Below, in pieces: positions 13,366 to 28,485 of a DNA stretch of 64,000 nucleotides. Both the position numbers and the translations under genes were made by a program. Position 1 is the stretch's first letter, and each line of letters starts with the position of its first letter. The DNA is from Phycisphaerales bacterium (lineage in GTDB: Bacteria > Planctomycetota > Phycisphaerae > UBA1845 > PWPN01), in assembly GCA_012729595.1 (NCBI GenBank), contig JAAYCU010000282.1:3591-67590 (forward strand). The letters are read 5' to 3'. The notes below the pieces were generated by a model. That model searched no databases, was not told where the DNA came from, and was given only the letters and a program-made list of their open reading frames with translations.

Positions 13366-13439
<74 letters not shown>

Positions 13440-13515: not shown

Positions 13516-14958
13516 CTACTCTTCGGCGTCCTCGGCGGCGAGGTTGTATTTGCGCATCAGGGCGTGGAAGTTCGTGCGTTGCATGCCGACCTGCTCGGCG
13601 GCCTTGCTGACGTTGCCGCCGCAACGGCGGAGGGCCTCGACCAGAAAGCGGCGTTCGAGTTCATGCACGGCCGAGTCGCGGACCTGCTGCTTGAGTTTCT
13701 TGAATTCCTCCCAGTCGGCGGGCAGTTGGCTGACATCCGAGCGCAGCGGGGCCTGGCGGATTTCCGGGGGCAGGTGTCGGGCCTCGATCCGGTCGGCATC
13801 GCAAAGAATGGCCATCCGCTCCACGATATTACGCAGTTCGCGAACGTTGCCCGGCCAGGGGTAGCTTTCCATCCGGGCCATGGCCTCTGGGGTGAATCCC
13901 TTGAGGGGCATGTCGTTCTTCTCGCGAAAGCGCTCCAGAAACGCCACAGCCAGCAGCGGGATATCCCCGGGCCGCTCGCGCAACGGCGGCAGGTGGATGG
14001 GCACGACGTTAAGGCGATAGTAGAGATCCTCGCGAAATGCGCCCTCGCGAACCAGGGCGGCCAAGTCGCGATTGGTCGCGGCGATCAGGCGGATATCCAC
14101 CTCGCGCTCGGCGGCCTCGCCCACCCGCTTGACCTGGCGAGTTTCCAGCACGCGCAGGAGTTTGCCCTGGGTCTCCAGGCTGATGTTGCCCACTTCGTCC
14201 AGAAAAAGCGTGCCCTTGTCGGCGGCCTCGAACAACCCCTGCTTGTTGCTGATCGCCCCGGAGAACGACCCGCGAACGTGTCCGAACAATTCACTTTCAA
14301 GCAGGGTCGGAGCCAAAGCGGTGCAATCGCAAGCCAGCAGCGAATGGTCGCGGCGGCGGCTTAAACGATGCAAGGCACGGACGACCATCTCCTTGCCCGT
14401 GCCGCTCTCGCCGGTGACCAGGACAGTGCCCTCGGTCGGGGCGACCCGCTTGATCAGGGTGAAGACCTGTTCCATGGTCCGCGATTCGCCGATGATCCCC
14501 TCAAAGCCGCGAGCGACATCGAGCTCACGGCGGAGGGCGGCGTTCTCGCGAAGCAAGACCGAGCGTTCCCAGACCTTGCCGACCACGACATGCAACTGGT
14601 TGGGCGAAAAGGGCTTGCTCAAGAAGTCGGCGGCACCCTGCTTCATGGCCTCGACGGCAGATTCGACCGTCGAATGGCCGGTGATAATAATCACTTCCGC
14701 AGAGACGCCAGCGGCTTTGACCCGCCGCAATATCTCGAAACCGTCGATCATGGGCATCATCAGATCAACAAGAATAATATCGAACTCACCGGACATGGCC
14801 GCCTGCAAGCCCTCGTTTGGATCCTCGCAATAAAGCACGTCATGGCCCTCCGGTGCGAGCGAACGTTTGCAGCTCAGCCCGACGACCGGTTCATCGTCGA
14901 TGACCAGAATCCGCAACGGGGCTCTTTGGGTGGCCATACCGGGAAGCGTATGACTCAT
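13516..14958 (-). CDS. Sigma-54-dependent Fis-family response regulator (NtrC-type enhancer-binding protein)
   Basis: Receiver (ILVIDDE...[10 protein letters not shown]), AAA+ core (GESGTGKE, a GAFTGA-loop variant [23 protein letters not shown]), C-terminal Fis HTH ([25 protein letters not shown]). Confidence 0.9.
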
Positions 14959-16904
14959 GACTCGGCCTTATCTTTCTCCGGCCGTTCGGCCTGGCCGGGC
15001 TGGTTGTCCGCGGCGGGCAGGATGATGGTAAATACCGCTCCGTTACCCTCGGCACTCTCCACCTCGAGCGAGCCGCCGTGCTGCTCGATGATCCCGTAAC
15101 TGACACTGAGGCCCAAGCCGGTGCTCTTGCCCACCGGCTTGGTACTGAAGAACGGCTCGAAGATCTGATCTAGATGTTCCCGGCGGATTCCATGTCCGGT
15201 ATCGGCTACCTGGATCACCACCAGCCGGTCACGCTGGGTTGTGCGAAGGGTCAATGTCCCACCGTTCGGCATGGCCTCGCAGGCATTGAGAAACAGGTTG
15301 AGCAACACCTGCTGAAACTGATTCATGTCGCCTCGGACCACCGGCAGGCCTTCGCATAATTCCTCGCTAATCAAAATCTCCTGGAACTGTTTTTGGCCGC
15401 CGATCAAACGGATAGTCCGTCGAATCGCATCGTTTACATCAAGCGGCTCCTTCTTGACCGGTTTCTCGCGTGCAAAATCCAGTAACCCACTGACAATCTC
15501 CGCCACCCGGCTGGTTTCGTTAATTATCAGCTCAAGATCCTCACGGTCCTGAGCGTCCATATTGGCCTTACCGTGCAGCAAATGGGCGAAGGTAAGGACG
15601 CCGGTCAGCGGGTTGTTAATTTCGTGGGCGATACCGGCGGCGAGGCGTCCGATGGAGGCCAGCTTTTCGCTACGGCCGATCTGCTGGCGGGCGGCCTGGG
15701 TGAGTCTTTCCTCGCGCTGGGCCACCGCGTCCGCCATAGAATCGATCGCCTGGCACAACTGCCCCATTTCGCCCGGTGGGTGCATACCGACCCTGACTGA
15801 AAAATCGCCCCCGCTCATTTTGCGGGACATGGCAATGATCCGATCGATAGGACGTAAAACCAGTTTGGTCACCAGAAAAATCAAGCTCAAACTCACCAGA
15901 GTAGCTAATCCCATGAAGGCCAGGAATGAACCGGCGATGATGTTCCGTTTGTGAAGAAAAGGCTCCTGAAGCAGGCCAACATATAATGCGCCGATGGTCC
16001 GGCCGCGTGGATCGCGAATCGGCTCGTAGGCGGAAATATACCAATCGTTAACAACGAAAGCCGGCGCCGCCCAGAGCTCTCCCCGTTCGAGAACGGCGTC
16101 CCGAACGGGCTCGCTCATCCGCGTGCCGACCGCCCGTTGTCCGCTTGGCAGGGTAACGTTGGTGGATATACGCGTATCGTCGAGGAAAATGGTTATGGTA
16201 CCTTTCTCCTGCCCCTGATGGGATTGGGGCGGAAAAACCATGGACTGGATAGCATCCACCACGTCGTAGCGTCCGTTGAGCAAATCACCGCCGTAGAGGA
16301 TTCCCAACAAGTGCCCCTGATGATCCGTTATAGGAACGGCGGCCGCGGCGACCAGCCCGTAGGTGGAAACACTGTCCGGGACAAGTTCCGCCGGCGTTGA
16401 CGCTATCAACTCGATCCTGGCCCGGGCCGCGAGTTCTCCGTCCTCTACGGCCAATTGCTCGTCAGTAAGAACAATGGTTCCGGTCGCGGCTTGTTGTGTC
16501 TCCATAACTTGGGCAATCAGTGGATTGTCAACCAGCATATCACCGGTCCGCTCGGGGGCCCGGGCCCGGCAGATCACCACCCCGGAGGCATCCAGAACAA
16601 CTACAAAGTCCATTTCCCAGGAGCTATATACCCTCCGTAATATCCGGCCCAGCTCATCGCAATCTTTTTTTTCCAGGGCTTCCGCCAGGGATTGATCCAA
16701 GGCGACCGCAAGGAGAAAATGGGCACTTCGCTCGATATGGTGATCGTAGATGACCCGGGCGCTATTTAGGTCGAGTCGAACATTGTTCTGGACCTCGTGT
16801 AGCCAAACCCGGCTGACATAGTGCACGGTAGCCAATGAAAGTATCGAGTTTGCCACCAGGATCACGGCGATAAACATCATGGTCAGCTTCACACGGATAG
16901 TCAT
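14955..16904 (-). CDS. Membrane sensor histidine kinase (large periplasmic sensor domain, HAMP, HisKA, HATPase)
   Basis: Start taken at MTIRVKL (ATG 16904; the track ORF extends upstream). Two TM segments flank a ~330-aa loop. HAMP, H-box AAGIAHEINNPL, N/G boxes NLFLNACEAM, DTGHGI, GLGLSV. Overlaps the regulator gene by 4 nt. Confidence 0.85.
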   Translation of the reverse strand: MTIRVKLTMMFIAVILVANSILSLATVHYVSRVWLHEVQNNVRLDLNSARVIYDHHIERSAHFLLAVALDQSLAEALEKKDCDELGRILRRVYSSWEMDFVVVLDASGVVICRARAPERTGDMLVDNPLIAQVMETQQAATGTIVLTDEQLAVEDGELAARARIELIASTPAELVPDSVSTYGLVAAAAVPITDHQGHLLGILYGGDLLNGRYDVVDAIQSMVFPPQSHQGQEKGTITIFLDDTRISTNVTLPSGQRAVGTRMSEPVRDAVLERGELWAAPAFVVNDWYISAYEPIRDPRGRTIGALYVGLLQEPFLHKRNIIAGSFLAFMGLATLVSLSLIFLVTKLVLRPIDRIIAMSRKMSGGDFSVRVGMHPPGEMGQLCQAIDSMADAVAQREERLTQAARQQIGRSEKLASIGRLAAGIAHEINNPLTGVLTFAHLLHGKANMDAQDREDLELIINETSRVAEIVSGLLDFAREKPVKKEPLDVNDAIRRTIRLIGGQKQFQEILISEELCEGLPVVRGDMNQFQQVLLNLFLNACEAMPNGGTLTLRTTQRDRLVVIQVADTGHGIRREHLDQIFEPFFSTKPVGKSTGLGLSVSYGIIEQHGGSLEVESAEGNGAVFTIILPAADNQPGQAERPEKDKAES

Positions 16905-17034
16905 GGTTATTCTCGATCCTGGCCGGTGGTTAGCAAAAATACTCGTACAGTGTATGAGCATACCATACACCCGAAAGGATGGTAGTAAACTCTGGGCAGC
17001 TTGACAAATAACCGCAGCGTAGCGACAAGGGGAC

Positions 17035-17052
17035 TGCAGCACCCTGGCTGCA
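17035..17052. promoter_or_regulatory. Inverted repeat TGCAGC-N6-GCTGCA, candidate enhancer (UAS) for the sigma-54 activator
   Basis: Perfect 6-bp arms about 100 bp upstream of the -24 element, followed by an AT-rich spacer. The function is inferred only from position. Confidence 0.25.
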
Positions 17053-17153: not shown

Positions 17154-17169
17154 TGGCACAGCGGTTGCT
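17154..17169 (+). promoter_or_regulatory. Sigma-54 (-24/-12) promoter upstream of hydC
   Basis: TGGCACagcggTTGCTt matches the TGGCAC-N5-TTGCW consensus exactly (GG-N10-GC spacing). It lies about 118 nt upstream of the hydC start and next to a sigma-54 EBP gene. Confidence 0.75.
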
Positions 17170-17286: not shown

Positions 17287-17778
17287 GTGATTGCCTTGGA
17301 TACCGAGGAAATTTTGACAAGGCACCCCAATGCCGGACGGGACAGCCTGATCCCTATTTTGCAGGAGGTCCAGGAAAGCCAGGGCTATCTGTCCCGGCAG
17401 GCGATGATCGAGATAGGCCGACATCTGAACTTGCCGGTCAGCAAAATTTACGGGGTGGCTACCTTTTACAACCAGTTCCGTTTCCAGCCGCAAGGCCGCT
17501 TTCACATCCAGGTCTGCCGGGGAACGGCCTGCCACGTTAAGGGGTCGGCCGCGGTGCTGGATGCGCTCAAACGCGAGTTGAAGATCGATGCGGGCCAGAC
17601 TACGCGGGACGGGGTGTTCAGCATGGAAGTCGTAGCCTGCATCGGGGCGTGCGGACTGGCCCCGGTCATTTGTATCAACGGAGAGTTTTTTGCCGGCGTA
17701 AGTACGCAGGCGGTACCAAAAATCATCGATTCTTATCGAAGAAAGGCGGCTAACAATGACCACGACGAAGCTGCCTGA
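17287..17778 (+). CDS. hydC: [FeFe]-hydrogenase subunit HydC (NuoE-like 2Fe-2S thioredoxin-fold protein)
   Basis: GTG start after an AGGAAGG RBS. NuoE motifs VCRGTACHVKGS and VACIGACGLAPV. Confidence 0.85.
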   Translation: MIALDTEEILTRHPNAGRDSLIPILQEVQESQGYLSRQAMIEIGRHLNLPVSKIYGVATFYNQFRFQPQGRFHIQVCRGTACHVKGSAAVLDALKRELKIDAGQTTRDGVFSMEVVACIGACGLAPVICINGEFFAGVSTQAVPKIIDSYRRKAANNDHDEAA

Positions 17779-19120
17779 ACAGGAAAAGTGCAAGGTTAAG
17801 GCCAAGTTGCCCGAGGTGCTTGAGTTGGTGTTGGCGGAAAACGCCGGACCAATTACGGACAATGTAGCCATGGCGTGGACGGAACGCCTGGCGGAACTAC
17901 GCCGAGAGAAGCTGGTTCGTCCGGCCGTATTTATCGGCACTGGCACCTGCGGGCTGGGGGCCGGAGCAGCCAAAACCCTGGCGGCGGTCAAGGGCTGGCT
18001 CGCGGAGCGGAACCTCGAGGCCGACATAGTGGAAGTCGGATGTATCGGTATATGTTCGGCAGAGCCGCTCTTGGACGTGCAGTTGCCCGGGCGGACACGG
18101 GTTTGCTTCGCCAAGGTAACGGAAGACAAGGTTGCCGCCCTGCTAGGCTCGGTTTTCGAAAACAATATCCCGGACGAGACGGTTTTGGGACAGCATCGCG
18201 GCGAATCCCTTGAACCTTGGTCAGATGTTCCCTGGCTGCACGAGCATCCGTTCTTCGCCCCGCAGACGCGATGGGTTCTGGCTAACTGCGGTCTGATCGA
18301 TCCGGCCAGCATGGACGAATATATCGCTCGAGGCGGCTACCGGGCCATGGTCAAGATGCTCCGGGAAATGACTCCCGAGCAGACCTGTGACATGGTGGAG
18401 GCCAGCGGGCTTCGTGGCCGTGGCGGCGGCGGGTTCCCCACGGGCAAAAAATGGAAATTCGCCAGGCAAACGCCGAGCAAGCAGAAATATGTAATCTGCA
18501 ACGCGGATGAAGGCGACCCCGGCGCATTCATGGATCGGGCGGTCATCGAGGGCGATCCCCACCGGCTGGTGGAGGGTCTGGCCATCGCGGCGTACGGAAT
18601 CGGGGCATCCAAGGCCTACATCTATATTCGCGCGGAATATCCGCTGGCCATCCAACGACTGAAAGTAGCGATCGAACAGGCCAGGAATGCCGGGTTACTG
18701 GGCCATCGGATTCTGGGCAGCGATTTTGACCTGGATATCATAATCAAGATGGGGGCGGGCGCGTTCGTGTGCGGCGAGGAGACGGCCCTGATGCACAGCA
18801 TCGAGGGCAAGCGGGGCATGCCCCGGCCGCGGCCGCCTTTCCCGGCGGTGCAAGGATTGTTCGGCAAGCCGACGATTATCAACAACGTCGAGACCCTGGC
18901 TAACCTGCCGACCTTAGTGGATCACGGGGCCGAATGGTTCAGTGCGGTGGGTACACCAACCAGCAAGGGAACGAAAGTGTTCGCCCTGTCAGGCAAGGTC
19001 GCCCGGACCGGCTTGGTCGAGGTGGCCATGGGCACCAGCATTCGCAGCATCGTGTTCGATGCCGGCGGCGGGATCCCCAACGGCAAGGTCTATAAAGCAG
19101 TACAGATCGGCGGGCCGTAG
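17756..19120 (+). CDS. hydB: [FeFe]-hydrogenase subunit HydB (NuoF-like), N-terminal part ending at an in-frame TAG
   Basis: N-terminal 2Fe-2S thioredoxin-like domain (CGLGAG...GCIGICSAEP). NuoF FMN/NADH motifs GLRGRGGGGFPTGKKW, CNADEGDPGAF, GAGAFVCGEETAL. Ends ...VQIGGP*. Confidence 0.85.
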   Translation: MTTTKLPEQEKCKVKAKLPEVLELVLAENAGPITDNVAMAWTERLAELRREKLVRPAVFIGTGTCGLGAGAAKTLAAVKGWLAERNLEADIVEVGCIGICSAEPLLDVQLPGRTRVCFAKVTEDKVAALLGSVFENNIPDETVLGQHRGESLEPWSDVPWLHEHPFFAPQTRWVLANCGLIDPASMDEYIARGGYRAMVKMLREMTPEQTCDMVEASGLRGRGGGGFPTGKKWKFARQTPSKQKYVICNADEGDPGAFMDRAVIEGDPHRLVEGLAIAAYGIGASKAYIYIRAEYPLAIQRLKVAIEQARNAGLLGHRILGSDFDLDIIIKMGAGAFVCGEETALMHSIEGKRGMPRPRPPFPAVQGLFGKPTIINNVETLANLPTLVDHGAEWFSAVGTPTSKGTKVFALSGKVARTGLVEVAMGTSIRSIVFDAGGGIPNGKVYKAVQIGGP

Positions 19121-19741
19121 GGCGGATGCATTCCCGAACATCATCTGGACATCCAGATCGATTATGAATCACTCAAGACCGTGGGCGCGATGATGGGCTC
19201 CGGCGGACTGGTGGTCATGGACGAAGACACCTGCATGGTGGACCTGGCCAAGTTTTTCATGGATTTCATCCAGCGGGAAAGCTGCGGCAAGTGTATTCCC
19301 TGCCGGGAGGGCACGCGACGTATGCTGGAGATTCTGGAACGGATCACCCAAGCCCGGCGGAGCGAAACGGGCACGGGCGCACTCGAACGGTTCAAGGGCG
19401 TGATGTACCTGACCCGGCTGGCTGAAGTAATCAAGGACACGAGCTTGTGTGGCCTGGGACAGACGGCGCCGAACCCCGTTCTAAGTACATTGCGGTGGTT
19501 CCGTAACGAATACGAGGAGCACATTTTCCATCGGCGGTGCCCGGCTGGAGCCTGTCGAGAGCTGCTGCACTTCCGGATCGATCCGGACCTGTGCAAAGGC
19601 TGCACGCTCTGCGCGAAGAAATGTCCGACACAGGCGATCATGGGCGCTCCCAAGAGCCCGCATTACATCATTACCGATAAGTGCATTGGTTGCGGAACGT
19701 GCCTGGAGGTGTGCCGCCCGAAAGCGGTTATAGTGGATTAA
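19121..19741 (+). CDS. hydB: HydB (NuoF-like), C-terminal part in the same frame as 17756..19120 (first Met at 19181)
   Basis: The same reading frame continues [10 protein letters not shown]...[14 protein letters not shown]. NuoF 4Fe-4S motif [12 protein letters not shown]...LCGLGQ, then 2x[4Fe-4S] [12 protein letters not shown] / [13 protein letters not shown]. Confidence 0.8.
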
Positions 19742-19796
19742 GACGGCGCGCTAGCCCGGCCTTCCGGGCGCGGCCGAGAATATCAAGAGGTTGATC

Positions 19797-21518
19797 GTGG
19801 TTACCATTGAAGTAAATAACCGAACTGTCGAGGCCAAACCGGGCGAAATGCTGCTCAGCACGTTGCGACGGGCAGGAATCAAGGTGCCTACCATGTGCAA
19901 TATCGATGGGCTGCCGCCGAGCGGGGCCTGTCGGATGTGCGTGGTGGAGGTGGAGGGCCGGCCGGGGCTGCAACCGAGTTGCGCGTTGCCGGTGACCGAA
20001 GGCATGAAGGTACAGACCCATTCACCGCGGGCGGTACGGGCTCGGAAAACCATCGTGGAATTGCTGCTGGCCAACCATCCGGACGACTGCCTTTACTGCG
20101 TGCGGAATAACCAGTGCGAGCTGCAAAACCTGGCCGGCGAACTGGGCGTGCGTGAGCGGCGTTACACAGGCCAGCGCGAAGAATATCACCTGGACCTATC
20201 CAGCCCGTCCATCGTGCGCGATCCGGCCAAGTGCATTCTGTGTGGCAAGTGCGTGCGAGTCTGCGCAGAAATCCAGAACGTCGCCTCGATCGATTTTGTC
20301 GGACGGGGCAGCCATTCGCGGGTCGGGACCGCCTTCGAGCAGGGTTTGAACGTATCGAGCTGCATCAATTGCGGCCAGTGCGTGATGATCTGCCCGACGG
20401 GCGCGTTACGCGAGAAAAGCGCATTGAAGGAAGTGTTCGAGGCCATCCTTGACCCGGAACGTGTTGTGGTGGTGCAACACGCTCCGGCGGTCTCCGTGAG
20501 TCTGGCCGAGGAGTTCGGCCTGCGTCCGGGAACGGACATCAACGGCGTGATGGTGGCCGCTCTCCGCCGGCTGGGCTTCGACCGGGTATTCGACACGTCG
20601 TTTTCCGCGGACCTGACCATCATGGAGGAAGCTTCCGAGCTGGTGGATCGTATCAAGAACGGCGGCAAGTTACCGATGATGACCAGTTGCTCGCCGGGCT
20701 GGATCAAGTTCGTCGAACAGTTTTATCCGGACATGATAGAGAACCTGTCCACCTGCAAGAGCCCGCAACAAATGCTCGGTGCGCTGATCAAGTCGCTCTT
20801 CGCGGAACGGGAAGGGATCGATCCGTCCCGGATTTTCAGCGTGTCGATCATGCCCTGCACGGCCAAGAAGTTCGAGGCCGGCCGACCGGAGATGGGCCGG
20901 CATGGAATCGCAGACGTGGACGCTGTTTTGACCACCCGCGAACTGGCCCGCATGATCCGCCTGGAGGGCATCGATCTTCAATCGCTCACGCCGTCGGAAG
21001 CGGACAACCCGTTCGGGCAGCGGAGCACGGCCGGCAAGCTATTCGGCGCAACGGGCGGAGTCATGGAAGCGGCGGTCCGAACCGCGCATTACCTATTGAC
21101 CGGACGCGAACTGGCCGAATTAAAGGTTCAGCCTATTCGCGGCATGAAAGGCGTGAAGAAAGCGAAACTGAAAATCGACGGCCTGGAGATCGGCATCGCG
21201 GTGGCCAGCGGGCTGGGCAACGCCGCTGAACTACTGGAAGAGGTACGGGCCGGCCGACAGGATCTGCATTTTATCGAGATAATGACCTGCTCAGGCGGCT
21301 GCGTGGCCGGAGGTGGCCAACCGATAGGGGCCGACGCCGCAGCGGTGCGGGCGCGAATGCAAGCCCTGTATAACATTGACCGCAGTGGAACCTTGCGTAC
21401 ATCCCACTCCAACCCGGACATCAAACGGGTCTACGAAGAGTATCTGGGAGAACCGCTGGGCGAGAAGAGCCACCATCTGTTGCATACGCATTACGCAAAA
21501 AGGGAAGTAGTGGGTTAG
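19797..21518 (+). CDS. hydA: [FeFe]-hydrogenase catalytic subunit HydA (HndD type, group A trimeric/bifurcating architecture)
   Basis: N-terminal 2Fe-2S and His-ligated/4Fe-4S domains. H-cluster motifs L1 MTSCSPGW (variant), L2 MPCTAKKFE, L3 EIMTCSGGCVAGGGQP. GTG at 19797 follows an AAGAGG RBS (track TTG at 19791). Confidence 0.9.
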   Translation: MVTIEVNNRTVEAKPGEMLLSTLRRAGIKVPTMCNIDGLPPSGACRMCVVEVEGRPGLQPSCALPVTEGMKVQTHSPRAVRARKTIVELLLANHPDDCLYCVRNNQCELQNLAGELGVRERRYTGQREEYHLDLSSPSIVRDPAKCILCGKCVRVCAEIQNVASIDFVGRGSHSRVGTAFEQGLNVSSCINCGQCVMICPTGALREKSALKEVFEAILDPERVVVVQHAPAVSVSLAEEFGLRPGTDINGVMVAALRRLGFDRVFDTSFSADLTIMEEASELVDRIKNGGKLPMMTSCSPGWIKFVEQFYPDMIENLSTCKSPQQMLGALIKSLFAEREGIDPSRIFSVSIMPCTAKKFEAGRPEMGRHGIADVDAVLTTRELARMIRLEGIDLQSLTPSEADNPFGQRSTAGKLFGATGGVMEAAVRTAHYLLTGRELAELKVQPIRGMKGVKKAKLKIDGLEIGIAVASGLGNAAELLEEVRAGRQDLHFIEIMTCSGGCVAGGGQPIGADAAAVRARMQALYNIDRSGTLRTSHSNPDIKRVYEEYLGEPLGEKSHHLLHTHYAKREVVG

Positions 21519-21655
21519 CCGGATTAACCACGGAGAGCGCGAAGACTAACAAAAGGAAATCATGGTTTTGTGAAAACCAGAAAGAACCATGAGAATGCTT
21601 AAGATTATTCGCTCCGTGTCTTCCTTGCCCTCCGCGGCAAAAACAAGGTACTGAT

Positions 21656-23659
21656 ATGCGACATCCCGCGGATATTCCGTTGGTCACGACGATCAAGGAG
21701 CGCTGCCGGGTATGCTATACCTGCGTGCGGGAGTGCCCGGCCAAGGCCATCCGTATTTCCGATGGTCAGGCGGAAGTACTGACGGAACGTTGCATAGGAT
21801 GCGGAAACTGCGTGCGAGTCTGCAGCCAGCACGCCAAGCAAATCTTAAACGGCATTGAGGAAGTCAAAGCTTTGCTGGCGAGCGAGCATAAGGTAGCCGC
21901 CTGCGTAGCACCGAGTTTTCCTGCCGAGTTTGAGGAAATCCCCTACACCAAACTGGTCGGCATGATCCGAGCCCTGGGTTTCGATTATGTCACCGAGGTC
22001 GGTTTCGGTGCGGATTTGGTGGCCGACCGATACCGCAAGCTGCTCGATGAAAATGGAAATAAGCGATATTTGGCCACCAGTTGTCCGGCTATCGTGGGTT
22101 ACGTAGAGCGCTATCATCCCGAACTGGTCAATTCATTGGCCCCGATCGTCTCGCCCATGGTGGCCACGGCCCGGGTCTTACGCCGTATGCACGGCAAAGG
22201 GCTGAAGGTTGTGTTTATCGGCCCGTGTATCGCCAAGAAAGGCGAGGCGGTAACCCGAAAAATTGCGGGCGACGTTGACGGAGCACTAACCTTTTCGGAA
22301 TTGCGCCATTTTTTCGCGGCGCAGAATATTACACCGGAGTCCGCCAGTAGCGATGAATTTGATCCACCACGTGCCGGGGCCGGATCCTTGTTTCCGATCA
22401 GCCGCGGCATGTTACAGGCCGCCCAGATCAGCGAGGATCTTGCAGCGGGGATCGTCGTGGCAGCCGACGGGCGCAGCGATTTCGCGGAGGCCATTCGCGA
22501 ATTCGAGACGGGCGATCTGGATGCTCGGCTACTGGAAGTTTTGTGTTGCAACGGCTGCATCATGGGTGCAGGCATGACCTGCCGCACTCCCCAATTCCAT
22601 CGTCGCAGCCGGATCAGCCAATTCGTCCGCCGACGCATGGGGGCGATGGATCATCGCGAATGGGAAGGACAGATGACCCGTTTCGCGGATCTGGACCTGA
22701 GCCGATCATACGAGGCAAACGACCGGCGGGTCGCCGCACCGTCGGATGACGCGGTTCGGCTGATACTCGCGGAAATGGGCAAGCTCAAACCCGAGGATGA
22801 GCTGAATTGCGGGGCCTGTGGCTACGAAAACTGCCGGGAACATGCCATCGCTATTTATAAGGGCCTGGCCGAAAGCGAGATGTGCCTGCCTTACACGATC
22901 GAGCAGCTTCGCCAGACAGTACAGGAGCTGGCCAGCACCCAAGAGGCGTTGAATAATTCCGAGAAACTAGCGAGCATGGGACAGATGGCCGCGGGCATCG
23001 CCCACGAGGTGAACAATCCGCTGGGTGTCGTGCTTATGTTCGCCCACATTCTGCTGGACGAGCTCCCCCCGGACAATCCGTACCGCAAGGATTTGCAGAC
23101 GATCGTGGAAAACGCCGACCGGTGCAAGAAGATCGTATCCGGCCTGCTGCATTTCGCCCGGCAGAATAAGGTCAGCCTGGAAATGACGGATGTGCGCGAC
23201 TTGGTGGACAAAGCCCTCAAGGTCGTATCCCTTCCAGCCAAAGTCACGTTACAGGTTGAACATGAGCCGGGAGACATGAACGCGGACGTTGACCGAGACC
23301 AGTTGGTGCAGATTTTAAACAATCTTATCAGTAACGCGCAGGCGGCTATGCCCAATGGTGGAACCCTGACCGTACGGACCAGCGAGGACGGCGAGCGAGT
23401 GTGTATCGCGGTATCCGATACCGGAGTGGGCATTCCGGAAGAGAATCGGAAGAAGATCTTTGATCCGTTTTTCACCACCAAGGAGGTGGGCAAGGGAACC
23501 GGGCTGGGACTGGCGGTAACGTACGGAATCGTGAAAATGCATCATGGGAATATTGAGGTGGAATCGAATGCGGATGCCGCCAAAGGCCCGACGGGAACGA
23601 CATTCAGGGTACTCCTACCGCGTCGCGGCCGTCAGGAGGCGCCCGCATCGGCGGGTTAA
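21656..23659 (+). CDS. Hydrogenase-like (H-domain) sensory protein fused to a histidine kinase (HydS-type domain + HisKA + HATPase)
   Basis: 2x[4Fe-4S] ferredoxin motifs ([23 protein letters not shown]). Degenerate H-cluster motifs [31 protein letters not shown] 4-Cys module CGACGYENC...C. H-box [12 protein letters not shown], and [24 protein letters not shown]. Confidence 0.85.
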
Positions 23660-23679
23660 TATATATAAAGGACACGACA

Positions 23680-24066
23680 ATGGCCAAAACAGTACTGGCA
23701 GTGGATGATGATGCTGATTATCTGGCCCAACTGGAGATCCAGTTGTTGGCCGCGGGATTCGAGGTCTGGACCGCCGAGAGCGTTGGACAAGCGAAGGAGA
23801 TTCTAGACCAACGCCGCCCGGACCTGGCGGTCGTAGACCTAATGATGGAGCACATGGACGACGGTTTCACCTTGTGCCACGACATCAAGGCTCGCGACGC
23901 AAGCATTCCGGTTATTCTGGTGACCGGAGTGGCGGGCGAAACCGGCCTGGATTTCGACGCCTCGACCAAGGAAGAGCGTTCGTGGATCAAGGCAGACGCC
24001 TTACTGGACAAGCCGGTGCGTTTTGAGCAGCTTAGGCGGGAAATCGGCAAGCTGCTTAAGGAATAG
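23680..24066 (+). CDS. Single-domain response regulator (receiver only)
   Basis: 128 aa. VLAVDDD, DLAVVDLMMEH, ILVTG and LDKP receiver signatures, with no output domain. AAGGA RBS. Confidence 0.85.
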   Translation: MAKTVLAVDDDADYLAQLEIQLLAAGFEVWTAESVGQAKEILDQRRPDLAVVDLMMEHMDDGFTLCHDIKARDASIPVILVTGVAGETGLDFDASTKEERSWIKADALLDKPVRFEQLRREIGKLLKE

Positions 24067-25238
24067 TGGTCATGGATACATTACGGGTGTTGGTCACCGA
24101 CGATGAGGCAGAGATGCGCCGGGCGGTGGATCGGGCTCTGGCCCGCTTCACCGTGGCGTTACCCGACGTTGAAGGGGAAGTATGCTTCGCTGTCGAGCAA
24201 GCCGAGAGTGGCGAACAGGCCCTCGAAAAAATCGCGGTCCAACCTCCGGATATCCTGATGCTGGACTACAAAATGGGCGGCATGACCGGCTTGGATGTCC
24301 TTGATCAACTATCCAAACAGGAACACGAAATGCTGACCGTGATGGTGACCGCCTACGCCTCACTGGAAACAGCGGTGGTGGCGACCAAACGCGGCGCATT
24401 TGATTTCATCGCCAAGCCTTTCACTCCGGCCGAACTTAAGGACACGGTCCGCAAGGCGGCCGCGCACCTGTTGATGCAGCGGCAGGCCCGCAAGCTGGCC
24501 CAGGAAAAGCGACAGGTCCGGTTCCAGTTCATCAGCGTGCTGGCCCACGAGTTGAAAGCGCCGCTGGGGGCGATCGAAGGCTTTCTGCAAGCTTTGACGA
24601 ATCCGCAGGTGCGGGCCAACGACGAGGCCTGCGCCCAGATGATCGGGCGCTGTCTGATACGGACCGAGGGGATGCGTAAGATGATCCACGACCTGCTCGA
24701 CCTGACCCGTATCGAGTCCGGGGCCAAGAAACGCGAGCTGGCGGAATTGGACGTGGTCGAGATGGTCCACCGATCCATCGAAACCCTGACCCCGCTGGCG
24801 ACGGAACGCAACGTACGGATCGAAGTGCGTACGGACGGGCCGATACCCATGATGGCCGACCAGGGAGAAATCGAAATCATCGCGAACAATCTGCTGAGCA
24901 ATGCGGTGAAATACAACAAGGAGGGCGGCCGGGTCGAGGTCAAGCTATCCGCCGACGGCGAGGAAGCGGTATTGGCCGTGACGGATACGGGGATCGGCAT
25001 GACCGCCGAGGAAACCGCCCGGCTGTTCCGGGATTTCGTACGGATCAAGAATGACCAAACCAGGCGGATCATGGGCAGCGGACTGGGTCTTTCGATCGTT
25101 AAAAAGCTGGCCCTGCTCTACGGCGGTGACGCGACGGTGTGGAGCGAACCGGGCGAGGGCAGCACCTTTACGGTTCGTTTGAAACGCAACCTGGGCGGCG
25201 AGCCGGCGGCGGCCGCCGAACGCGCGGTCGAGGCCTGA
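24066..25238 (+). CDS. Receiver-histidine kinase hybrid (REC + HisKA + HATPase, cytoplasmic)
   Basis: N-terminal receiver (VLVTDDE, DILMLDYKMGGMTG, FIAKPF), H-box SVLAHELKAPL, N/G boxes NLLSNAVKYN, DTGIGM, GSGLGLSI. No TM or sensor domain. The start is coupled to the preceding stop. Confidence 0.85.
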   Translation: MVMDTLRVLVTDDEAEMRRAVDRALARFTVALPDVEGEVCFAVEQAESGEQALEKIAVQPPDILMLDYKMGGMTGLDVLDQLSKQEHEMLTVMVTAYASLETAVVATKRGAFDFIAKPFTPAELKDTVRKAAAHLLMQRQARKLAQEKRQVRFQFISVLAHELKAPLGAIEGFLQALTNPQVRANDEACAQMIGRCLIRTEGMRKMIHDLLDLTRIESGAKKRELAELDVVEMVHRSIETLTPLATERNVRIEVRTDGPIPMMADQGEIEIIANNLLSNAVKYNKEGGRVEVKLSADGEEAVLAVTDTGIGMTAEETARLFRDFVRIKNDQTRRIMGSGLGLSIVKKLALLYGGDATVWSEPGEGSTFTVRLKRNLGGEPAAAAERAVEA

Positions 25239-25399
25239 ACCTTGGACGCCGCGATGCGGGGAAGCGGATGAGGCCCCACGGGCTGACCGGATTACCCACC
25301 GGCAAGAGGCGGGAGAATGACTTCCTGGGGTATTTTACCGCGTGGTTTTTTGTAGACCAGCCGCCTATGAATATAAGTAGGATCTTGTGAGGAGTTGCC

Positions 25400-26821
25400 A
25401 TGCGTGCCATGGCCCAGATGACCTTAAGCGAACACGCCACCGACTTTATCGACGACGACCGGTTGAACGGTCTGCTTCGATCGCGGCCGGACGAGGCCCG
25501 CGTGCGCGCCATCATTGAAAAAAGTCTGGCCAAGCAAGCCTTGAACGTCGAGGAAACCGCGGTCCTGCTCAACGCCGAGGAACCGGACCTTGTCGAGGAG
25601 ATTTTCGAGGCCGCCCGGCGGCTCAAGCGCAACGTGTACGGCAACCGCATCGTTCTTTTCGCCCCGCTATATATCGGCAACGAATGCGTGAACGACTGCC
25701 TGTACTGCGCCTTCAAACGCTCAAACCCGGACGCGGTTCGGCGGACGCTGGCGGAGCAGGAGTTGCGGCGGCAGGTGGAGGCCCTGGAAAACCAGGGGCA
25801 TAAGCGACTGATTCTGGTATTCGGAGAGCACCCGCGTTACGACGCCACGTTTATTGCCGATTGCGTGCGCACGGTTTACGACGTGCATGCAGGGCATGGG
25901 CAGATTCGACGAGTGAATATAAACGCCGCCCCGCTCGATCACGTCGGGTACAAGACCGTCAAAGAGGCCGGAATCGGCACGTACCAGGTGTTTCAGGAGA
26001 CGTATCACCACGCCACCTATGCCCGGGTCCATCCGTCCAACACACGCAAGGGCAATTACGGTTACCGCTTGGATGCCTTGAGCCGGGCCATGGAGGCGGG
26101 CATCGACGACGTGGGGATCGGGGCGTTGTTCGGCCTGTACGACTGGCGCTTCGAGGTGCTGGGCCTGGTAGCGCACGCGACGTATCTCCAGAAACGACAT
26201 GGGGTCGGGCCGCACACGATCAGTTTTCCACGCTTGCAGCCGGCCGCGGGCGTGCAACTCGATCAACGGTTTTTCGTAAACGATCACGACTTCAAGCGGC
26301 TGATCGCCGTCCTGCGGCTGGCCGTCCCTTACACCGGGCTTATCCTGACCGCCCGGGAAAAGCCCGCCTTGCGCCGCGCGGTGATGGAATTCGGGGTCTC
26401 CCAGATCGACGCCGGCAGCCGCATCGAGATCGGCGGATACACCGAGGCCGGCGACGCGCAGTGCATGGAACGCGAACAGTTTCAACTGGGCGATATCCGC
26501 TCGCTCGATGAGGTCATGCGCGAATTGCTGGTGGACGGCTATATCCCCAGCTTCTGTACGGCCTGCTATCGGCTGGGCCGGACCGGGGAACATTTCATGG
26601 AATTCGCGATCCCCGGCTTCATCAAGCGCTATTGCACGCCAAACGCCCTGAGCACGCTCATGGAATACCTGACCGACTACGCCTCTCCGCAAACCAAGGC
26701 GGCAGGCCGAAGACTGATCGAGGCTGAACTCGATAAAATGGATAACGGCACGCAAAAAGAACGCCTGCGGGACGTATTGCGGAAAATCGAATCAACCGAC
26801 CAACGCGATCTCTATTTCTGA
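25400..26821 (+). CDS. hydG: [FeFe]-hydrogenase H-cluster radical SAM maturase HydG
   Basis: GAGGAG RBS. Radical SAM CVNDCLYCAF. C-terminal Fe-S motif GYIPSFCTACYRLGRTGEHFMEF and CTPNAL. ~470 aa, typical of HydG (ThiH-like). Confidence 0.88.
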   Translation: MRAMAQMTLSEHATDFIDDDRLNGLLRSRPDEARVRAIIEKSLAKQALNVEETAVLLNAEEPDLVEEIFEAARRLKRNVYGNRIVLFAPLYIGNECVNDCLYCAFKRSNPDAVRRTLAEQELRRQVEALENQGHKRLILVFGEHPRYDATFIADCVRTVYDVHAGHGQIRRVNINAAPLDHVGYKTVKEAGIGTYQVFQETYHHATYARVHPSNTRKGNYGYRLDALSRAMEAGIDDVGIGALFGLYDWRFEVLGLVAHATYLQKRHGVGPHTISFPRLQPAAGVQLDQRFFVNDHDFKRLIAVLRLAVPYTGLILTAREKPALRRAVMEFGVSQIDAGSRIEIGGYTEAGDAQCMEREQFQLGDIRSLDEVMRELLVDGYIPSFCTACYRLGRTGEHFMEFAIPGFIKRYCTPNALSTLMEYLTDYASPQTKAAGRRLIEAELDKMDNGTQKERLRDVLRKIESTDQRDLYF

Positions 26822-28485
26822 TTCACGGATTGATCCTTGGAAAACTCGCTACCGGGCGGAATTACTGGGGCAGGCGCGACCGGGACCGACGGCCCATGAT
26901 CCGGTCTGATCGGCGCGGCCATAACGGCCGATTCAATACGGGGAACCGAAACCAGATCCGCACCCTGCAAATCTTCAGCCAGACCTCCCAGTCGATGGCC
27001 GAACCAGGTGGTCAGCGACACATAAAGGTAGCCGACCATAAACAGGCAGAGGAACGGTACACCGATAGAAACCCGCAAAGTTCCGCAACAGAGAAACAGG
27101 CAGGTCAGCAAATATAAGCCTATCGCAAGTTCGAAGAACGGCTGGAGCTTGATCTTGCGATCTGCTCGTCGCAGTGCCGCCGCCTTGTCCTTCCATCGTG
27201 AGCCGGAACAACCGACGCCGAATTTCTCTGTACGCACAAACTCGCCGGGCTCCCCGAAAAAGCCGGCCAAGACCGCCCGAGCGTTATTTAGCGAAATACC
27301 CAACCCCAGCGCCATGAGAAATGGTATGTACTTGAGGCTGTCGGCCCAACTGCGAAACAACTCTCGCTGACTGGCGATATAAAACATGCTGGCCGAAAAA
27401 GTGGCCATCAGCAGCACGGAGAAATCGAACACATATCGGAGCCACCCTTCGGCGAAGACATGGACCTTGAGATAGACCACCGGATAAAGCATCAAGGTCA
27501 GCAAAACCATGTAAAGGTATACGGTGCAACTGGTCAGGTGGAAAAACGCCTCGAGTTTGATGCGTTTGGGCAGACGCGAACACAGAATCGTAGGCAGCAG
27601 CTTGCGACAGGTCTGGGCCCCACCCTTGGCCCAGCGGTATTGCTGCTGCTTGAAGCACTCCATGTCCGGGGGCAGTTCGGCCGGCGAGGTCAGATCTGGC
27701 AGATATACAAATTTCCAACCTTTTATCTGTGCCCGATAGGATAAATCTAGATCCTCGGTCAGGGTGTCGTGCTGCCATCCACCGGCATCGTCAATGCAGG
27801 CCCGCCGCCACATACCGGCCGTACCGTTAAAACTCATGAATCGCCCGGATCGGTTGCGTGCCGCATGTTCGATCACAAAATGGCCGTCCAGCAGGACAGC
27901 CTGGGTCCGGGTTAGGAGAGATTGGTCGCGATTCAAGTGCTCCCAGCGGGCTTGAACCATGCCCACTCGATGATCGGTAAAATAATCGATGGTGCGGCTA
28001 AGGATATCGGTCGGCGGAATAAAATCAGCGTCAAAGATCATGACAAACTCGCCGGTCGCGGTCTTCAACCCCTCGGCCAAAGCCCCAGCCTTGTATCCAC
28101 GGCGATCCTTGCGGTGCCGGTGTTGGATGTCGAATCCCTGCTCCCGCCAATAACTCACGGCTTGAGCCACGATGTTCACCGTCTCGTCGGTCGAATCGTC
28201 GAGCACCTGAATCTGCAGGAGATCTCGAGGATACTCTATCCGGCAGGTGGCATCGATCAGGCGACGCGCCACGGCACTTTCATTGAACATGGGCAGTTGC
28301 ACGGTGATTCGTGGGCGATGAAGGAAGCAAGCCCGGATTCGCGGAGTATTGCGGCGGTATTTGTAGTACAAATGGACCAACTGGTACCGATGCAGGCCAT
28401 AGAAGCAAACCAAGCCGAGTACCAGAAGGTACACCAGCAGATAACCGTAGAGGAATAGCTCTTCGCTGAAAATTGCTTCCAACAT
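26812..28485 (-). CDS. Processive family-2 glycosyltransferase (cellulose synthase/CslA-like, multi-TM)
   Basis: QVLDDSTDET, FDADF, TEDLDLS and QQYRWAKG (QxxRW) motifs. N-terminal and C-terminal TM segments. Confidence 0.8.
   Translation of the reverse strand: MLEAIFSEELFLYGYLLVYLLVLGLVCFYGLHRYQLVHLYYKYRRNTPRIRACFLHRPRITVQLPMFNESAVARRLIDATCRIEYPRDLLQIQVLDDSTDETVNIVAQAVSYWREQGFDIQHRHRKDRRGYKAGALAEGLKTATGEFVMIFDADFIPPTDILSRTIDYFTDHRVGMVQARWEHLNRDQSLLTRTQAVLLDGHFVIEHAARNRSGRFMSFNGTAGMWRRACIDDAGGWQHDTLTEDLDLSYRAQIKGWKFVYLPDLTSPAELPPDMECFKQQQYRWAKGGAQTCRKLLPTILCSRLPKRIKLEAFFHLTSCTVYLYMVLLTLMLYPVVYLKVHVFAEGWLRYVFDFSVLLMATFSASMFYIASQRELFRSWADSLKYIPFLMALGLGISLNNARAVLAGFFGEPGEFVRTEKFGVGCSGSRWKDKAAALRRADRKIKLQPFFELAIGLYLLTCLFLCCGTLRVSIGVPFLCLFMVGYLYVSLTTWFGHRLGGLAEDLQGADLVSVPRIESAVMAAPIRPDHGPSVPVAPAPVIPPGSEFSKDQSVNQK

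Follow-up and report, generated by a model that had tools for sequence, protein, structure and literature searches.

A gene at positions 21656-23659 (plus strand) of a 64-kb stretch of DNA from a Phycisphaerales metagenome-assembled genome (MAG), hereafter the window, encodes a 667-residue protein in which a sensory [FeFe]-hydrogenase module is joined to a histidine kinase (HK). We call the gene hydS-HK, and we consider its product to be probably a cytoplasmic sensor histidine kinase with a complete [FeFe]-hydrogenase of the sensory type (HydS, group C-like) as its input module, that is, an H2 sensor made of one protein. The open reading frame runs from ATG to TAA exactly as given in the initial annotation, and Pfam finds the parts listed there in the same order: Fer4, Fe_hyd_lg_C, PF04060, HisKA and HATPase_c. 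The deposited protein, NLX14377.1, is annotated just as '4Fe-4S binding protein'.

The case for an H2 sensor begins with the H-domain, which spans residues 79-305 (21890-22570) as judged by the Fe_hyd_lg_C profile, alignment to the hydrogenase CpI, conservation and Foldseek. The two checks proposed for this domain, a significant profile match and retention of the cluster-ligating cysteines, both came out in its favor. PF02906 (Fe_hyd_lg_C) matches with E 1.1e-46 and 160 bits, against a cut-off of 22.1, over profile positions 2-245 of 245. In the CpI alignment, from which all residue equivalences are taken, the four ligands C300, C355, C499 and C503 correspond to C143, C191, C298 and C301, with a one-residue deletion between the last two, and K358 corresponds to K194. 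The residues that contact the CN/CO ligands are also retained (A85, P86, S87, P167 and K194, equivalent to A230, P231, S232, P324 and K358). Conservation was counted in 120 full-length homologs of 62-90% identity. All four ligands and the equivalents of K358 and E361 are invariant in this set, as are the cofactor-contact residues A85-P86-S87 (A230/P231/S232) and S166-P167 (S323/P324). Where CpI has TSCCP, hydS-HK has a single Cys. The C299D chain 6glz in the same alignment output places C299 at the first Cys of TSCCP, and therefore the single Cys of the hydS-HK motif is the cluster ligand. C297, the second Cys of an 'LCC' motif, was considered as a further ligand and rejected because eight of the 120 homologs carry Ala there. 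By its sequence, the predicted H-cluster site is complete, with all four Cys ligands and the residues that surround the cofactor.

The same alignment shows that the proton pathway of catalytic group A enzymes, C299-E279-S319-E282, is not retained in hydS-HK, nor are M353 and M497. These positions hold Ser (S142), Arg, Ala, Lys, Gly (G189) and Leu (L296), respectively, in agreement with the annotated loss of the relay Cys and replacement of Met by Gly. All the motifs quoted in that annotation, including the altered H-cluster motifs, the C-terminal four-Cys module and HEVNNPL, are present in the protein. The pattern of loss is family-wide: all 120 homologs have Gly at the M353 position, 119 have Leu at the M497 position and 108 have Thr or Ser at the C299 position. 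Loss of the relay Cys and proton pathway is the signature of putative sensory HydS enzymes. A small residue at M353 is typically Gly in group C and Ser or Thr in group D (PMC10055695, PMC8163306), so that Gly is the group C-like state.

Land et al. define HydS proteins (groups C and D, subclasses M2e and M2f) by features that can be compared one by one with hydS-HK (PMC8163306). The N-terminal 2x[4Fe-4S] ferredoxin module occupies residues 14-59 (21695-21832; Pfam Fer4_10/Fer4 dicluster), with cysteines at 17, 20, 23, 27, 46, 49, 52 and 56. Seven of these (C20-C56) are invariant in the 120 homologs; at C17, 117 have Cys and three have a gap. The H-domain without a proton pathway is the second feature. 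The third is a C-terminal Fe-S domain, here PF04060 at residues 383-412 (22802-22891), whose C385, C388, C393 and C410 form an exact Cx2Cx4Cx16C motif, the signature of M2e and M2f (PMC8163306), and are invariant throughout the homologs. An adjoining group A3 bifurcating hydrogenase, a further HydS feature, is encoded directly upstream as hydCBA. A PAS domain following the Fe-S domain, which belongs to subclass M2f and to group C in the form of PAS fusions in which reviews usually present it (PMC11216029, PMC8924675), is the one feature that hydS-HK lacks. The likeness to sensory HydS proposed in the initial annotation therefore holds for domain order and motifs when set beside the literature on TmHydS and TamHydS (PMC8163306, PMC10055695), both of which bind a functional H-cluster despite their substitutions and have sensor-like properties. 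Homology and synteny shared with Hydrogenedentota and Calditrichota proteins classed as C3 in PMC11406978 suggest a placement of hydS-HK in group C3.

The C-terminal half carries the sequence hallmarks expected of a HisKA-type (class I) sensor histidine kinase, namely an H-box and N, G1 and G2 boxes. HisKA/DHp covers residues 441-503 (22976-23164; Pfam E 9e-15) with the phospho-acceptor H450 in HEVNNPL, and HATPase_c covers residues 546-656 (23291-23623; Pfam E 1e-26) with its N, G1 and G2 boxes. H450 is invariant in all 120 homologs, as are N556, N560, D588, G590, G592 and G614-L619 of the catalytic domain. Pfam gives no PAS match in the protein, and the roughly 30 residues between the Fe-S domain and HisKA are all helical; a PAS domain hidden in this linker is excluded by the missing match and by the insufficient room. 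Structure prediction, another of the proposed checks, supports the division into sensor and transmitter. An AlphaFold2 (AF2) model built on the homolog alignment has a mean pLDDT (predicted local distance difference test) of 82.6, and its sensor core lies mostly at 85-98, with a few 10-residue blocks dropping to 73-84. Foldseek matches the first ~430 residues best to [FeFe]-hydrogenases and the C-terminus best to the cytoplasmic domain of ZraS.

hydS-HK is another member of a large family and no singleton. A word-indexed search returned 7,994 matches at E<=1e-10, of which the top 120 all have the same domain set. At least 220 loci encode the fusion when one genome per species is scanned, which answers the call for a distribution survey. 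We labelled the best 80 of these loci L001-L080 and used them for all comparisons of gene neighborhoods. They come from Planctomycetota/Phycisphaerae, Acidobacteriota, Latescibacterota, Hydrogenedentota, Calditrichaceae, Fermentibacteria, Myxococcota, Verrucomicrobiota, Lentisphaeria and others.

How sensor and kinase are joined follows a spacing rule. The distance from the last Fe-S Cys to the phospho-His is 47 residues in 111 of the 120 homologs and 40 in the other nine, which include the window copy; its linker is thus the short form, one heptad below most homologs. Across 39 directly fused representatives (clusters at 50% identity), 33 have spacings of 33, 40, 47, 54 or 68 residues, all in one class modulo seven, and several of the off-register representatives carry a different HisKA subtype. 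The connecting segment, residues 411-440 (22886-22975), is predicted to be a coiled-coil signaling helix on the basis of AF2 helices at 411-425 and 428-469, these heptad-stepped lengths and a family-averaged hydrophobicity with a period of 3.4-3.5 over residues 411-470. Steps of seven residues point to a rigid coiled-coil transmitter. The predicted helix starts at a conserved CLPY motif, immediately behind the last Fe-S Cys, and continues as a coiled coil into the DHp helix with H450; CLPY is common to PAS-type relatives and relatives with other outputs. Elsewhere the same sensor core is fused to PAS-HK, GAF-GAF-HK, PAS-HK-REC-REC or PAS-sigma54 AAA+ modules, or to PAS alone. Because one core carries such varied outputs, the Fer4-H-FeS unit appears to behave as a portable input module, and we read its output here as a dimeric coiled coil that enters the DHp domain directly. 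For TamHydS, the subunits of an AF2 dimer meet along the C-terminal helix, and 1 atm H2 fails to reduce the C-terminal cluster (PMC13104023). Both observations favor a conformational over an electron-transfer route.

The genes around hydS-HK link it to hydrogen metabolism and to phosphotransfer. Upstream on the plus strand lie hydC, a NuoE-like 2Fe-2S subunit (17287-17778; NCBIfam NuoE/HoxE); hydB, a NuoF-like flavoprotein (17756-19741; Pfam on both halves, with an in-frame TAG inside); and hydA, the catalytic [FeFe]-hydrogenase subunit, M3-type with an SSU domain (19791-21518; Pfam and NCBIfam FeFe_hydrog_A6, 840 bits). Downstream on the same strand follow a single-domain response regulator consisting of REC alone (23680-24066; Pfam; D53 and K111 conserved), a REC-HisKA-HATPase hybrid, that is, a receiver-regulated kinase (24066-25238; Pfam; D67 and H161 conserved), and the H-cluster radical-SAM maturase hydG (25400-26821; TIGR03955, 499 bits). 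Both REC neighbors retain the phospho-acceptor Asp, and the hybrid also retains its His and ATP-binding boxes. The conserved order in related loci is hydC-hydB-hydA-hydS/HK-REC-REC/HK-hydE-hydG-(aspartase)-hydF, and this synteny spans Planctomycetota, Acidobacteriota, Latescibacterota, Hydrogenedentota, Calditrichota, Myxococcota and others. The position directly after hydCBA, from which H2 feedback control had been argued, is confirmed by the coordinates, and the argument gains strength from the 67 of 80 loci with hydA directly upstream; roughly half of the remaining loci are truncated by the end of a contig. The REC-HisKA-HATPase hybrid lies downstream in 76 loci. Three of the four loci without it end within ~600 nt of the gene, leaving L014 as the only true exception. 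The single-domain receiver is found in 71 loci and hydG in 48.

A few of the 80 loci (L014, L075, L079 and L080) encode fused-sensor homologs without hydCBA within 8 kb upstream, and L014 also lacks REC and REC-HK. In some genomes, the sensor module may regulate something besides an adjacent hydrogenase. A separate observation concerns hydA, whose L1 motif reads TSCSPGW (window positions 20682-20702, from residue 298 onward), with Ser at the C300 ligand position and the relay Cys kept. The variant occurs in all 63 HydA homologs of the related loci and has been mentioned, not explained, in the literature (PMC3787301, PMC11406978).

A working model can be outlined from these features. HydE, HydF and HydG would load the H-cluster, where H2 would bind and be slowly turned over. 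The resulting redox or conformational change would reach the C-terminal Fe-S domain and then the coiled coil, as a shift in register or rotation, and the dimeric kinase would toggle between autokinase and phosphatase states. The phosphoryl group might pass to the adjacent single-domain receiver, to the REC domain of the adjacent REC-kinase hybrid, or to both; the hybrid would relay it to an unlinked output regulator that feeds back on the expression of hydCBA and the maturases. In the lineage of the window, transcription of the operon would also depend on sigma-54 via a neighboring enhancer-binding response regulator. A more specific version holds that hydS-HK, the single-domain receiver and the REC-kinase hybrid form a conserved three-protein H2-responsive phosphorelay, and that the signal leaves the sensor mechanically, via the heptad-locked coiled coil that starts from CLPY, and not via electron transfer to the C-terminal [4Fe-4S] cluster. 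We put this version forward tentatively, as having slightly less than an even chance of being right. If true, a signaling route would be defined for the first time in a sensory [FeFe]-hydrogenase, and a general rule would follow for its PAS-, GAF- and sigma-54-coupled relatives.

Several points weigh against an H2-sensing kinase of this kind. Our literature search found no biochemical or autophosphorylation study of the fused type. The structure modelled by AF2 is that of a monomer, and confidence in its linker and DHp is low. No conserved gene of the cluster contains an output domain in the 80 loci. The failure of H2 to reduce the C-terminal cluster of TamHydS makes a simple redox relay through that cluster doubtful (PMC13104023). 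In CpI, M497L is reported to disturb [2Fe] insertion (cited in PMC10055695), but TamHydS tolerates Leu at this position. Finally, with a premature stop in hydB and no hydE or hydF within the 64 kb, the system may be impaired or the MAG erroneous.

An alternative that we regard as unlikely, although it fares better than the others, is that the kinase senses redox state or electron flux. Its Fe-S clusters would equilibrate with the ferredoxin/NADH pool, or the protein would dock on HydABC as a fourth 'T' subunit, so that the kinase reports the reduction state of the bifurcating hydrogenase and not dissolved H2. Three accessory [4Fe-4S] sites, including a ferredoxin module of the surface type, would suit such a role, as would the adjacency to hydCBA already described, and the name BfuT given in PMC11406978 treats the protein as a subunit; H2 and the ferredoxin pool are in any case thermodynamically coupled through the H-cluster. 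A simple redox sensor built on Fe-S clusters, however, would have no need of the complete and invariant H-cluster pocket, and the family clusters with hydE, hydG and hydF.

A decayed system, in which the sensor gene is intact, the pathway that it regulated is broken and the fusion is without current function in the window genome, is a little less probable still. It draws on the peculiarities of this copy. hydB contains an in-frame TAG at 19118-19120, within a GGP-S-GGC motif at which all 53 relatives that retain both halves carry Ser (a TCG-type codon) and no stop. Recoding of TAG is ruled out, as TAG ends hydA, REC, the sigma-54 activator described below and other genes of the window, where it is a genuine stop. 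Either a pseudogene or a MAG consensus error would account for it, and a single-base consensus error is equally likely. Neither hydE nor hydF is found in the 64 kb; roughly one in two related loci (~40 of 80) keeps both clustered, and in the window genome both may sit elsewhere. Against decay, hydB is uninterrupted in a close relative (L001, 91% identity), and hydA, hydS-HK, REC, REC-HK and hydG of the window are all intact with their catalytic residues. The aspartase gene that flanks hydG in about half of the related loci is likewise absent from the window. Here, hydG directly follows the REC-HK gene and is abutted by a family-2 glycosyltransferase gene on the minus strand (in the region 25239-28485).

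That the H-cluster instead detects an inhibitor gas (O2 or CO), either sacrificially or reversibly, with the kinase turning off hydrogenase expression upon O2, seems very improbable. In its favor, TamHydS and TmHydS show unusual reactions with CO and O2, a stable Hair state among them (PMC8163306), and the hosts of related loci include facultative or micro-oxic lineages. Against it, sensory HydS enzymes tolerate CO better than catalytic ones do (PMC8163306), and the conserved partner is an H2-producing or H2-consuming enzyme, not a set of oxidative-stress genes.

The preferred reading, an H2-sensing kinase beside its hydrogenase operon, has a local regulatory context that differs from that of most relatives. 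A sigma-54-type promoter, TGGCAC-N5-TTGCT, lies at 17154-17169 on the plus strand, a perfect consensus 118 nt upstream of hydC and the only strict match in the window. Strict matches in 2.3 Mb of related loci number two, both upstream of hydC (L001 and L016). The promoter is not a trait of the family: of the 53 loci tested, only the window, L001 and L016 carry it upstream of hydC. Divergent from the operon on the minus strand (13516-17042), Pfam identifies a Cache/GAF/HAMP histidine kinase (14955-17042) and a REC-sigma54 AAA-HTH activator (13516-14958). This pair is probably the local driver of the sigma-54 promoter of the hyd operon. As a conserved output of the sensor it is ruled out, since it occurs in L001 only among the 80 loci. 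The 137-nt spacer between hydA and hydS-HK (21519-21655) holds nested inverted repeats with a minimum free energy of -36.7 kcal/mol, a moderate z = -2.1 against shuffled sequences. It contains no terminator-like T-run and no Rfam element, and the corresponding spacers of other loci are mostly shorter. The only Rfam match in the window at the gathering threshold is a tRNA gene at 13366-13439 on the plus strand.

How putative sensory [FeFe]-hydrogenases transmit the H2 signal is still an open question in the field, and a 2026 study of TamHydS states that interaction partners remain to be identified (PMC13104023). Members of the fused family have their partner joined to them covalently, and therefore autophosphorylation with and without H2 would be a direct readout. 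The heptad rule offers a sharp mutational test. Anaerobic Planctomycetota, Acidobacteriota, Hydrogenedentota and other phyla harbor the family in large numbers, and in them it lies beside the main bifurcating hydrogenase, for which reason it probably represents a common regulation of fermentative H2 metabolism. Use of the fusion as a genetically encodable H2 biosensor is also conceivable.

The architecture itself is already catalogued though biochemically uncharacterized, so that its novelty is modest. The initial annotation was right, if understated, in saying that surveys had noted kinase-linked members: HydDB lists a putative 'histidine kinase-linked' group C1 (PMC5037454), and in 2024 one of two kinds of group C3 enzyme in Hydrogenedentota was described as having a histidine kinase domain and was named BfuT (PMC11406978). 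Its further statement that only stand-alone PAS-type HydS proteins had been studied stands in part. We likewise found no biochemical study of the fused type, but the characterized TamHydS has no PAS domain; the HydS proteins studied biochemically are TmHydS, with PAS, and TamHydS, without PAS or kinase, only. What our analysis adds is the heptad-stepped spacing, the conserved downstream REC and REC-HK pair and the local oddities of this copy.

Among known systems, BfuT (group C3, beside group A3 BfuABC, in Hydrogenedentota and Calditrichota) has the same architecture and the gene order C-B-A-T. It is encoded downstream of bfuA, in a type of cluster that Caldithrix abyssi also has, and a HydDB entry with the kinase domain, WP_006928132.1, is cited as well (PMC11406978). 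Our set includes full-length homologs with the same synteny from these phyla (L041 and L049, Hydrogenedentota, 61% identity; L073, Calditrichaceae, 57%). The Phycisphaerales copy differs in its linker, shorter by one heptad, its sigma-54 promoter and its broken hydB, and neither the REC and REC-HK partners nor a linker rule appears in the searched text of the BfuT description (PMC11406978). TmHydS of Thermotoga maritima (group C, subclass M2f) shares the 2x[4Fe-4S] N-terminus, Cx2Cx4Cx16C, Gly at M353, an H-domain without C299, E279, E282 and S319, and a location with bifurcating HydABC (PMC10055695, PMC8163306). It ends in PAS without a kinase, however, and has Ala at C299 and Ser at M497 where hydS-HK has Ser and Leu; the core of hydS-HK is ~35-42% identical to PAS-type representatives. 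TamHydS of Thermoanaerobacter mathranii (group D, subclass M2e) resembles hydS-HK in having no PAS, Leu at M497, and a C-terminal [4Fe-4S] domain with a subsequent helix for which pairing in a parallel dimer is predicted (PMC13104023), whereas its M353 position is Ser instead of Gly and its kinase-like ATPase is encoded by a separate neighboring gene instead of being fused.

More distant parallels concern circuit and transmitter. The [NiFe] systems HoxBC-HoxJ-HoxA and HupUV-HupT-HupR (HydDB group 2b) likewise run from a slow, inhibitor-tolerant hydrogenase through a histidine kinase to hydrogenase expression (PMC5037454, PMC5665086), but they use an unrelated metal centre and fold, their sensor and kinase are separate proteins joined through PAS, and their output regulator, HoxA, is known. 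ZraS, AtoS and NtrB provide the best matches for the DHp and CA domains (ZraS, E 4e-36 and template modelling (TM) score 0.79; AtoS, 207 bits). The scores fall far under the equivalog cut-offs, and hydS-HK differs completely in its input module and has no membrane anchor.

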